A stretch of DNA of 32,000 nt from Candidatus Baldrarchaeota archaeon (GCA_019056805.1 DXJG01000009.1:207454-239453); one strand, 5' to 3'. Shown: positions 1-3,458, counted from the stretch's first letter. Notes: generated by a model not told the origin, from the letters alone. Program-made: numbers and translations.

Positions 1-389
1 TTCTCACCAATAGCTTCTTTATAACCCTTAAAATTAACAATAATAATTGGCAAATCTATTTTCATCATACCAAATCACCATACCGCCCATTATACATTAC
101 GCTATAACATGCTCAATCAATATAAGTTTACTCGAAAATACAAGCATTGGTACATTGCAACTTAACAATATCAAATTTTGCAATTCTTTTGCAATTCGTA
201 ATTCGAATATTTTTTGTTTCAACTGTAAAAAACAGAATATACCAAAATTATATTCAGAAATATCAAATTAGCATTATTTTACTAATACAAGATTATCTAA
301 AAGGTAACGCGTATAAAATTCGTGAAGATAACTTTTTAAAATTCTAAAACATTTGAATCACACAAAAAATATAGATAGGAGAGGAGAAA

Positions 390-1578
390 ATGACACAAAA
401 AACAACAGTTTCAATAATAAAGGCAGACATAGGTTCACTAGCAGGACACCATGTAGTACATCCAGAACTAATTGAACTTGCCAAAAAGGAACTCGAACAC
501 GCCAAAAAAGAAGGAATCATAAAAGACTACTACGTATTTAACTGTGGAGACGACCTACAACTACTAATGACGCACGACAAAGGAGAAGGAAATTCACAAG
601 TCCACGAACTTGCATGGAACACATTCAAAAAAGCAGCAGAAAAAGCAAGAGAAATGAAACTCTACGGCGCAGGGCAAGACTTACTAAAAGAAGCATTCTC
701 AGGAAACATACGAGGCATGGGACCAGGAGTAGCAGAACTAGAATTCGAAGAAAGAAAATCAGACCCAATCCTAGTATTCGCAGCAGATAAAACAGAACCA
801 GGAGCATTCAACCTACCACTATTCAAAGTATTCGCAGACCCCTTCAACACCCCAGGACTCGTAATAGACCCAAACATGCACGGACCAGACCTAGAACACA
901 CAGGATTCAAATTCAAAATACTTGACGTAATAGAAGGAAGAAGCGTAGTCTTAAAAGCACCAGAAGAAATCTACGACATTCTCGCATTAATAGGTACAAC
1001 AGGGCACTATGTAATCGAAAAAATATGGAGATACGACGATCTACCAGCAGCATCAGTATCCATAACAAGACTAAGCTTGATAGCAGGAAAATATGTGGGC
1101 AAACTAGCAGCTATAATGGCTGCTAGGCCTAAAGATGACCCAGTTGCTATCGTACGTGCGCAACACGGTCTTCCAGCCGTAGGCGAAGTACTCGAAGCTT
1201 TTTCATTTCCACACGCCGTCGCAGGTTGGATGCGTGGTAGCCACTACGGGCCCCTAATGCCTGTAGGATTAAAAGATGCTCGATGCACCAGATTCGACGG
1301 CCCCCCAAGAATCGTATGTCTAGGATTCCAAGTATGCAATGGCCATCTAATTGGTCCTTCAGATATGTTTGACGATCCAGCATTTGACAGAACCAGAATG
1401 CTTGCCAACGAAATTGCCGAATATTTCAGAAGACATGGACTCTTCATGCCCCACAGACTCGGTCCAGATGGGAGAAGAACAATAACAGAATTAAACATGT
1501 TCTTCTCCCAGGACTCACGAAATGGAATATACAACGCTACCTCAGGTGCTAGAGAAACTCAGAGAACGATTCAAGTAA
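390..1578 (+). CDS. fbp: Bifunctional fructose-1,6-bisphosphate aldolase/phosphatase (class V FBPase), interrupted by two introns: join(390..1102,1133..1467,1517..1578), 369 aa spliced
   Basis: Family motifs KADIGS, GDD, YGAGQDLL, DKTEPGAFN, GWMRGSH and RFDGPP are present. The raw 404-aa ORF has a 10-aa insert in YVGK/DDP and an aberrant C-terminus. The conserved tail EMEYTTLPQVLEKLRERFK* lies in another frame (1519-1578). Removing both introns gives 1110 nt = 370 codons. SD GGAGAGGAG lies upstream. Confidence 0.95.
1103..1132 (+). other. Putative BHB-type mRNA intron 1 (30 nt, in frame)
   Basis: Central helix GGGC(1097-1100)/GCCT(1127-1130), bulges AAA(1101-1103) and AAA(1131-1133), intron stem CTAGCAGC(1104-1111)/GCTGCTAG(1119-1126). 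Excision restores GGC AAA GAT GAC (G-K-D-D). The exon-side helix is weak, so this is a relaxed BHB. Confidence 0.88.
1468..1516 (+). other. Putative BHB-type mRNA intron 2 (49 nt, frameshifting)
   Basis: Exon helix TCG(1459-1461)/CGA(1518-1520), central helix GTCC(1462-1465)/GGAC(1511-1514), bulges AGA(1466-1468) and TCA(1515-1517), perfect 13-bp stem TGGGAGAAGAACA(1469-1481)/TGTTCTTCTCCCA(1498-1510). Cutting after the 2nd nt of each bulge yields CCA GAC GAA ATG GAA TAT (P-D-E-M-E-Y). Confidence 0.93.
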
Positions 1579-1582
1579 ACCA

Positions 1583-1598
1583 TTTTCCTTTTATTTTT
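1583..1598 (+). terminator. Probable oligo-T archaeal terminator after the spliced fbp stop
   Basis: TTTTCCTTTTATTTTT begins 5 nt after TAA 1576-1578. The unspliced ORF would read through it. Confidence 0.5.
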
Positions 1599-2873: not shown

Positions 2874-3458
2874 ATGCAAAACTTGATGAATGAGCCCACA
2901 GATGAAAAATTAAAACAAATATCGAAAATGTTAGATGAATTAGAAAGAAAAACAACCTTGGAGGCAATAGCTCTCGTTTCCAAAAGCGGTTTACGTGTAG
3001 CTTGTGCAACAAGTACAGTGGTAGATGCCGACTTATTTTCAGCTTCGGCAGCAGCCTTGATAAATATCGGAGAGAAAACAACACGAGAATTAGGACATGG
3101 AAACCTAAATGATGTAATATTAAGAGGTGAAAATGGTTTTACGATAGTTACAGAGGTAAATCCACAAATGATGCTCGTTGCTAGCTGTAAAGAAACACAT
3201 AAACTAGGGTACTATATGGCGTTACTCAAAAACTATACAAGACGTATAGCTCAAGCTCTTGAACTTCCCTCTATTGAAGAAAAGATCCCACAAGTCCTGG
3301 AAAAACCTTATGTTGAAGAACATCCTACTCCGCCAGCACCACCAAAACCATTAGAAACAAAGACTCCAGAACCAGAGGTTTTAGAAACAGAACCTGAAGA
3401 GAGAGATGAAGAAGAGGAAGCACTACTAGAGGCTCTAAGAGCACTAGAAGAGGAATAA
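2874..3458 (+). CDS. Roadblock/LC7 (MglB-like) domain protein with Pro/Glu-rich C-terminal tail
   Basis: ALVSKSGL...DADLFSASAAALINIGEKTTRELGHG..NDVILRGENGFTIV matches the roadblock pattern, followed by a low-complexity tail ending EEEEALLEALRALEEE. Confidence 0.8.
   Translation: MQNLMNEPTDEKLKQISKMLDELERKTTLEAIALVSKSGLRVACATSTVVDADLFSASAAALINIGEKTTRELGHGNLNDVILRGENGFTIVTEVNPQMMLVASCKETHKLGYYMALLKNYTRRIAQALELPSIEEKIPQVLEKPYVEEHPTPPAPPKPLETKTPEPEVLETEPEERDEEEEALLEALRALEEE

Follow-up and report, generated by a model that had tools for sequence, protein, structure and literature searches.

In a Candidatus Baldrarchaeota archaeon, the gene fbp (Pfam FBPase_3, PF01950) is interrupted by two tiny insertions, and we consider it very probable, judging from the sequence, that both are removed from the pre-mRNA as bulge-helix-bulge (BHB) introns. 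The gene lies at positions 390-1578 of the stretch of DNA that we analyzed, 32,000 nucleotides (nt) in total (the window). An initial annotation of the window had proposed two such introns, each with 3-nt bulges that end in A and a 4-bp central helix, in a probable Asgard archaeon. The geometry proved to be canonical in both introns, and the nearest named relatives of the host are Asgard metagenome-assembled genomes (MAGs) labelled Baldrarchaeota and Odinarchaeota. What we observe is the motif, its exact fit to the boundaries set by homology, its conservation, selection on the spliced reading frame and the presence of the enzyme genes.

Without splicing, the sole long open reading frame (ORF) of the fbp region runs from 390 to 1604 and encodes 404 amino acids (aa). 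It matches FBPase_3 with E=8e-164 over positions 1-342 of the 361 positions in the profile. Compared to its homologues, this product has a 10-aa insertion after the invariant YVGK, and after LGPD it continues into a tail that is unrelated to the C-terminus of the family. Excising 30 nt at the first site and 49 nt at the second (Table 1) yields a protein of 369 aa, which ends at the stop codon TAA (1576-1578).

We scored four forms of the fbp product against a custom profile of 115 intron-less homologues. The unspliced form scores 646 bits and covers profile positions 2-345. Removing only intron 1 raises the score to 662 bits over the same positions. Removing only intron 2 gives 685 bits and extends the alignment to positions 2-363. 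When both introns are removed, the score reaches 700 bits and the protein aligns end to end, again over positions 2-363. Cutting at the BHB motifs thus restores the family sequence, as the initial annotation had claimed. A full-length match to the family (class V FBPase, the fructose-1,6-bisphosphate (FBP) aldolase/phosphatase) is reached only in the spliced form.

The proposed splice junctions can be placed on the structure of a homologue. In an alignment to the ST0318 structure (3r1m), YVGK corresponds to Tyr229-Lys232, and the codon at the intron 1 junction is that of Lys232. The tyrosine in the exon 3 motif EMEY aligns to Tyr348. Fushinobu and Du, each with co-workers, are said to have found in 2011 that Lys232 forms a Schiff base and that the Tyr348 loop acts in the aldolase reaction. 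Going by this alignment, an unspliced protein would hold ten extra residues in the Lys232 loop and would be without Tyr348.

PF01950 occurs as a single copy in the genome. Families of class I, II and IV FBPases were not found in this genome, a metagenome-assembled draft of 18 contigs and 1.92 Mb that is 91% complete. Because no other FBPase family was found, it is plausible that gluconeogenesis depends on fbp, as had been suggested. The accompanying suggestion, that double splicing offers a post-transcriptional switch, is supported by no evidence. Most simply, the fbp introns are tolerated selfish or neutral insertions, for which no regulatory role is needed.

Read from the 5' exon to the 3' exon, the BHB motif consists of H (4 nt), a bulge b1 b2^b3 (^ marks the cut), the h' stem-loop, H' (4 nt) and a second bulge b1 b2^b3. 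In both fbp introns a 4-bp helix lies between two 3-nt bulges on opposite strands, and all four bulges end in A. Intron 1 has the central helix GGGC/GCCU with one G.U pair, the bulges AAA and AAA, and an h' helix of 10 bp closed by a 3-nt loop. Intron 2 is a strict hBHBh' motif. It has an outer helix h of 3 bp (UCG/CGA, where the exon 3 bases 1518-1520 pair with 1459-1461), the central helix GUCC/GGAC, the bulges AGA and UCA, and an h' helix of 13 bp with a 16-nt loop.

Homology alone fixes the cut register of intron 2 uniquely. For intron 1 four registers are equivalent by homology, and the BHB selects one of them. The junctions read GTGGGCAA^AGATGACC for intron 1 and GGTCCAG^ACGAAATG for intron 2, exactly as first proposed. 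Spliced, the intron 1 junction is GGCAA^AGATG with the predicted peptide YVGKDDPVAIVR; the peptide LGPDEMEYTTLPQVLEK is likewise predicted for the spliced fbp product.

Folding agrees with these structures. In minimum free energy (MFE) folds of segments of 50-96 nt, H, h' and the first bulge all form; the z-scores range from -3.2 to -5.2, and the complete canonical BHB structure lies within ~3 kcal/mol of the MFE. For the chance rate we used a looser motif (H with at most one G.U pair and h' of at least 6 bp, at a fixed position and length), which occurs in the genome with a frequency of ~2e-5 per position and length. Two BHB matches at boundaries that are fixed by homology are therefore not a product of chance. 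Self-splicing introns of group I or group II were rejected as an explanation: the elements measure 30 and 49 nt, a ribozyme core measures hundreds of nt, and an Rfam scan of 300-1800 with E-values up to 1 returned no match. A BLAST search of both fbp introns against their own genome found no further copies.

The initial annotation had named the endonuclease EndA and a ligase as the route of removal. Genes for this route are present in the genome, namely those of RtcB, Archease and two EndA paralogues. The first EndA paralogue (184 aa) has its nearest counterparts in the catalytic alpha subunits of Crenarchaeota (3p1z_B, 1e-44), and the second (178 aa) is closest to the EndA of M. jannaschii. 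The two EndA genes are located in the regions G000:C9:197884-198129 and C9:13779-14039. Because of the crenarchaeal affinity of the first paralogue, the endonuclease is probably a two-subunit enzyme. Such an enzyme would fit the class of endonucleases with broad specificity (PMC5829648).

We propose the following mechanism. fbp would be transcribed as a pre-mRNA that carries two BHB introns of the tRNA type. Each intron would fold locally, with its h' stem-loop stacked on the 4-bp helix that the last exon bases form with the 3' end of the intron, and with the two 3-nt bulges flanking this helix. EndA would then cut after the second base of each bulge. RtcB, together with Archease, would join the exons and probably circularize the excised introns of 30 and 49 nt. 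The 369-aa FBP aldolase/phosphatase, with its Lys232 loop undisturbed and its C-terminal Tyr348 segment in place, would be encoded solely by mRNA that has lost both introns.

The fbp introns belong to a genome-wide set. More micro-introns had been anticipated in this lineage, and a search of the genome for BHB insertions in coding sequences found them: at least nine further mRNA introns could be verified in seven other genes. Together with fbp there are eleven introns and at least eight interrupted genes. For this search we relaxed the exon-length filter and then verified the introns by contiguous Pfam coordinates or by restored motifs (Table 1). All eleven introns start with A, and most bulges are rich in A. 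The BHB geometry recurs across many genes of the genome, with intron lengths of 26-49 nt. Besides fbp, glyA is the second mRNA of the genome with several introns. The BHB insertions of aIF5B and atpD are in frame and contain stop codons. Hence, these two introns must be removed.

One of the further introns can be compared between families. G004, a genome from another family of the same order, has the pcm intron as well (locus L263, ~1515-1600). The h' stem in G004 is wholly different, and the central helix has changed in a compensatory way, from CGCC/GGCG to CACC/GGUG. Such covariation supports mRNA BHB introns in the lineage well. The pyrG intron is restricted to the genus.

The introns lie within the most conserved motifs of their proteins: the switch region of aIF5B, TISAPHM in pcm, GAERRGAP in porG, KIDPYLNVDPG in pyrG, a zinc-ligand Cys in rpoN and Lys232 in fbp (intron indices, strand-specific and 0-based, C10:39156, C17:48218, C6:49466, C9 (minus) 457153, C10:32504 and C6:168424). 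Such placement recalls the lodging sites of inteins and homing introns. Introns may persist at conserved sites because their imprecise loss there would be lethal.

Searches by structure were also run across the whole genome. A loose BHB scan (H of 4 bp, h' of at least 6 bp, L of 14-400) gave 30,116 matches compared to 30,252 in a mirrored control, and thus no global signal. Candidates that restore a frame and have long open frames on both sides numbered 32, compared to 12 in the control; none of the 15 that we tested by split Pfam matches was confirmed, and they turned out to be adjacent genes or spurious frames. A census of structure scores is weakly above its mirrored control (12 top scores compared to 4, about three-fold). 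Because structure scores barely exceed the control, a full count of the introns is impossible from structure alone. A candidate intron in the MCM gene was rejected since it is coding sequence. In the MCM helicase gene (G000:C9:57487-59353, L090), an intein that contains a LAGLIDADG endonuclease domain immediately follows the P-loop region.

A wider interpretation can be offered tentatively, as a possibility that we would sooner doubt than assert. The tRNA-splicing machinery may serve as a general mRNA-splicing system in this Asgard lineage. Dozens of BHB micro-introns would then reside in the most conserved housekeeping motifs (so far two in fbp, three in glyA and one each in pcm, pyrG, porG, aIF5B, rpoN and atpD), would be gained and lost over short times, and would move between tRNA and mRNA genes. 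This would be a protein-only route to intron-rich protein genes, independent of the spliceosome, in the closest archaeal relatives of eukaryotes.

To follow the two fbp introns among relatives, we compared six loci: the window, three loci from metagenomes (L001, L002 and L003) and two loci from congeneric GTDB species genomes, L007 (G003, labelled Odinarchaeota AUK032) and L023 (G001, labelled Baldrarchaeota Yap30). All six carry an intron at the identical intron 2 site. Its lengths are 49, 49, 37, 43, 34 and 37 nt (window, L001, L002, L003, L007, L023). Every one of them is 1 mod 3 and breaks the frame. The loops differ entirely among the six loci and the helices are kept: 99% of the structure cells are paired, compared to 35-56% after sliding the partners. 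Seven substitutions fall within helices, and none disrupts pairing: six change to G.U and one is a compensatory change from C-G to U-A. Intron 2 is absent from G004 (82% identity) and from all more distant Asgard homologues that we examined. A 15-mer scan of metagenome contigs for further intron 2 homologues returned 120 unrelated stretches, none of them with fbp context.

Exon 3 reveals which frame is under selection. Across its 21 codons in the six loci there are 20 variable sites, and 14 of these fall on the third position of the spliced frame. Of the variable sense codons, 13 of 15 are synonymous, and the position of the stop codon is common to all six loci. In contrast, the unspliced tails of the six loci are 34-48 residues long and share no conserved sequence. 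Selection therefore sees the spliced frame. As an argument for splicing, exon 3 selection is stronger than the covariation of intron 2.

Intron 1 has a different distribution. Of the six loci only the window and L001 have it, and the two copies differ by one base. In L002, L003, L007 and L023 it is precisely absent, and the sequence reads GGCAA[A/G]GATGA. Hence, intron 1 was either gained recently or lost recently in the other loci.

Several points weigh against the splicing of both introns. The covariation of intron 2 comes from six related sequences with one double change, and 89 of 500 shuffles reach the observed score; on its own it is not statistically decisive. No RNA run turned up in a search for sequencing runs that contain this stretch, so that cleavage, ligation and circular products are inferred. 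Furthermore, splicing would have to compete with coupled translation. Intron 1 has an outer helix h of only ~1 bp, and its motif thus takes the relaxed HBh' form. It is also in frame and stop-free and known from two close copies. Its excision is suggested by geometry, by its position in the Lys232 loop and by analogy.

These features of intron 1 favor the only rival explanation with real weight. According to this rival, splicing affects intron 2 alone. Intron 1, the element of 30 nt, would be translated as a tolerated loop of ten residues, and its BHB-like fold would be incidental or a relic. Since intron 1 occurs in two near-identical lineages only, no comparative test is available. We nevertheless regard this explanation as improbable. 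The canonical 4-bp helix with its 3-nt bulges coincides with one of the four homology registers, for which the chance is ~2e-5 per register even with the looser motif. The insertion hits the codon aligned to Lys232, in a segment that is invariant across the family, and its removal adds 15 bits to the profile score. In addition, the same genome contains in-frame BHB insertions with stop codons in aIF5B and atpD.

A second rival holds that neither element is removed. The gene would then make a 404-aa protein with an extra loop and an altered C-terminus, or it would be a decaying pseudogene. The unspliced ORF is indeed open to 1604, and public gene callers annotate such products: entries P0001-P0003 record unspliced, frame-shifted fbp products of 382-392 aa for relatives. 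The initial annotation had warned that gene callers would misread introns of this kind. P0001-P0003 show that current annotation pipelines do misread these genes. This second rival is very unlikely. The changes in exon 3 are synonymous in the spliced frame only and the stop is shared, whereas the unspliced tails lack conserved sequence. The unspliced product also lacks the family C-terminus and Tyr348, the lengths of intron 2 vary and yet are all 1 mod 3, and a search of the genome found no FBPase of another family.

A ribosome that bypasses the elements, by hopping as in T4 gene 60 or by programmed frameshifting, is a third and scarcely credible explanation. A gap of ~50 nt with a stable hairpin is superficially like the coding gap of gene 60. 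However, each junction splits a codon (phase 2 for intron 1, phase 1 for intron 2), which excludes ribosomal hopping, and no matched take-off and landing codons yield the conserved Asp-Glu-Met-Glu-Tyr. Moreover, the same BHB geometry at 26-49 nt is found in many genes, and tRNA genes are heavily interrupted too. Finally, assembly or sequencing artefacts, which the initial annotation had raised as a possible objection and a draft MAG in 18 contigs might invite, have virtually no chance of explaining the insertions and are refuted by independent DNA: Logan contigs from four other runs of four studies span intron 1 without differences, one contig spans intron 2, and homologous introns occur in the independent assemblies L001 (an ENA assembly with 95% protein identity and both introns), L002, L003, L007 and L023.

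Table 1. Features of fbp in the window, and BHB introns in other genes of the same genome (^ marks the cut)
Feature	Position	Strand	Description
Shine-Dalgarno-like GGAGAGGAG	378..386	+	4 nt upstream of ATG 390-392, read from sequence
fbp exon 1	390..1102	+	its last two bases, AA, begin the Lys codon that aligns to Lys232 of ST0318
Intron 1 BHB, exonic strand of central helix (GGGC)	1097..1100	+	first bulge 1101-1103 (AA^A)
Intron 1	1103..1132	+	30 nt, phase 2, in frame, no stop
Intron 1 parts	h' arms 1104-1113, 1117-1126; loop 1114-1116; H strand 1127-1130; second bulge 1131-1133	+	H strand GCCU; second bulge AA^A
fbp exon 2	1133..1467	+	homology alignment
Intron 2 BHB, 5' side	1459..1467	+	h 1459-1461 (UCG), H strand 1462-1465 (GUCC), bulge bases 1466-1467 (AG)
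Intron 2	1468..1516	+	49 nt, phase 1, breaks frame
Intron 2 parts	h' arms 1469-1481, 1498-1510; loop 1482-1497; H strand 1511-1514; second bulge 1515-1517	+	H strand GGAC; second bulge UC^A
fbp exon 3	1517..1578	+	20 codons and TAA stop; family C-terminus including the Tyr348 equivalent
T-rich tract	1583..1598	+	directly after the spliced-frame stop; putative function, likely archaeal terminator
pcm, BHB intron	G000:C17:48026-48749 (L108)		31 nt; PCMT profile 3-59, then 61-208
pyrG, BHB intron			32 nt; CTP_synth_N 1-40, then 42-265
porG, BHB intron			35 nt; POR 1-32, then 33-173
aIF5B, BHB intron			33 nt, in frame; restores GGITQHIGA
glyA (serine hydroxymethyltransferase), BHB introns	G000:C6:43419-44521 (L110)	-	26, 26 and ~45 nt; three introns join four frame-shifted SHMT pieces
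rpoN, BHB intron			41 nt; conserved junction sequence restored
atpD, BHB intron			36 nt; conserved junction sequence restored

Some features of the locus stand apart from the question of splicing. The unspliced frame would run through the T-rich tract to its end at 1604. The order of genes, TIM, fbp, an AAA_16-type ATPase (1669-2730, -) and Roadblock/LC7 (2874-3458, +), is kept in L001 and L003. At 882-899, fbp has an insertion of 18 nt, or six residues (GPDLEH), relative to most of the FBPase family. A third intron was considered here and rejected, because no BHB is present, the insertion is too short, and P0004, a Baldrarchaeia homologue without introns, has it as well. These six residues are an ordinary, lineage-specific addition to the protein.

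The tRNA genes of the same genome are also rich in introns. ARAGORN finds 18 tRNA genes only, the majority with introns, which suggests that many others escape recognition because they are too heavily interrupted. One multi-intron tRNA gene (G000:C9:4480-4640) has a 29-nt intron (C9:4557) with stem sequence in common with fbp intron 1; the two match in their first 8 nt, ACTAGCAG, and in a 9-nt stretch at the 3' side, CTGCTAGGC. The shared stretches may reflect a common intron family, or a transfer between tRNA and mRNA genes. CTAG is present in the h' stem of four of the seven mRNA introns examined; this tetranucleotide has an ordinary genome-wide frequency (observed/expected 0.89).

The results matter first for annotation. 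BHB introns in protein-coding genes had so far counted as a peculiarity of a single crenarchaeal gene. Here, a central gluconeogenic enzyme would need two splicing events and the genome holds many such genes, from which it would follow that gene callers mis-annotate these lineages. In metabolic reconstructions from Asgard MAGs, genes of this kind may be mistaken for broken or aberrant ones. Furthermore, fbp is a concrete test system for how splicing can coexist with coupled transcription and translation. Routine and obligatory mRNA splicing by EndA and RtcB in an Asgard archaeon would bear on the origin of intron-containing protein genes and of the cytoplasmic, tRNA-ligase type of mRNA splicing seen in HAC1/XBP1.

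HAC1 and XBP1 are spliced in eukaryotes by proteins only: the mRNA is cleaved at small stem-loops, a tRNA ligase (RtcB in animals) joins the exons, and the frame changes. fbp resembles them in that an mRNA would be cleaved at stem-loops and ligated, and in that intron removal alters the frame. The nuclease of HAC1/XBP1, however, is Ire1 and not EndA, the motif is different, and splicing acts as a regulated stress switch, a role that nothing supports for fbp.

Multi-intron tRNA genes have been described in Asgard archaea (bioRxiv 10.64898/2026.10.13.758758). They have the BHB motif in common with the fbp introns and are presumably processed by the same enzymes, and the tRNA genes in the genome of fbp are heavily interrupted as well. 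That study, a 2026 preprint, is restricted to tRNA genes; the intron-rich classes in it are Jordiarchaeia and Atabeyarchaeia, and neither mRNA introns nor Baldrarchaeia are mentioned.

In our literature search, cbf5 (PMC2738675) was the sole BHB intron found in a coding region, and HVO_1309 of Haloferax volcanii (PMC7714728) was a case in a 5' untranslated region (5'-UTR). The HVO_1309 intron is likewise an mRNA substrate of the archaeal splicing endonuclease. Unlike the fbp introns, it lies in an untranslated leader and leaves the frame intact, and it was demonstrated by CRISPR interference (CRISPRi) knock-down and cleavage in vitro.

The closest parallel is the BHB intron in the cbf5 pre-mRNA of Crenarchaeota (Aeropyrum, Sulfolobus; Watanabe 2002; Yokobori 2009, PMC2738675), which a 2020 review of endonuclease substrates lists as the only coding example (PMC7714728). 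Like cbf5, fbp has short BHB introns within a protein-coding ORF that are presumably cut by EndA and that are gained or lost in particular lineages. Also as in the hosts of cbf5, the genome of fbp encodes an EndA catalytic subunit of the crenarchaeal kind. The differences are equally clear. Splicing of cbf5 was shown experimentally, whereas that of fbp is predicted. Unlike cbf5, fbp encodes an enzyme of central metabolism, belongs to an Asgard phylum and has two introns per mRNA, one of which splits the codon aligned to the catalytic Lys232. And unlike cbf5, which was described as a single case (PMC7714728), fbp shares its genome with at least seven other interrupted genes. We class the fbp introns with the pre-mRNA BHB introns of the cbf5 type; they are unusual in that two of them lie in one metabolic gene, in an Asgard archaeon and as part of a pervasive set.
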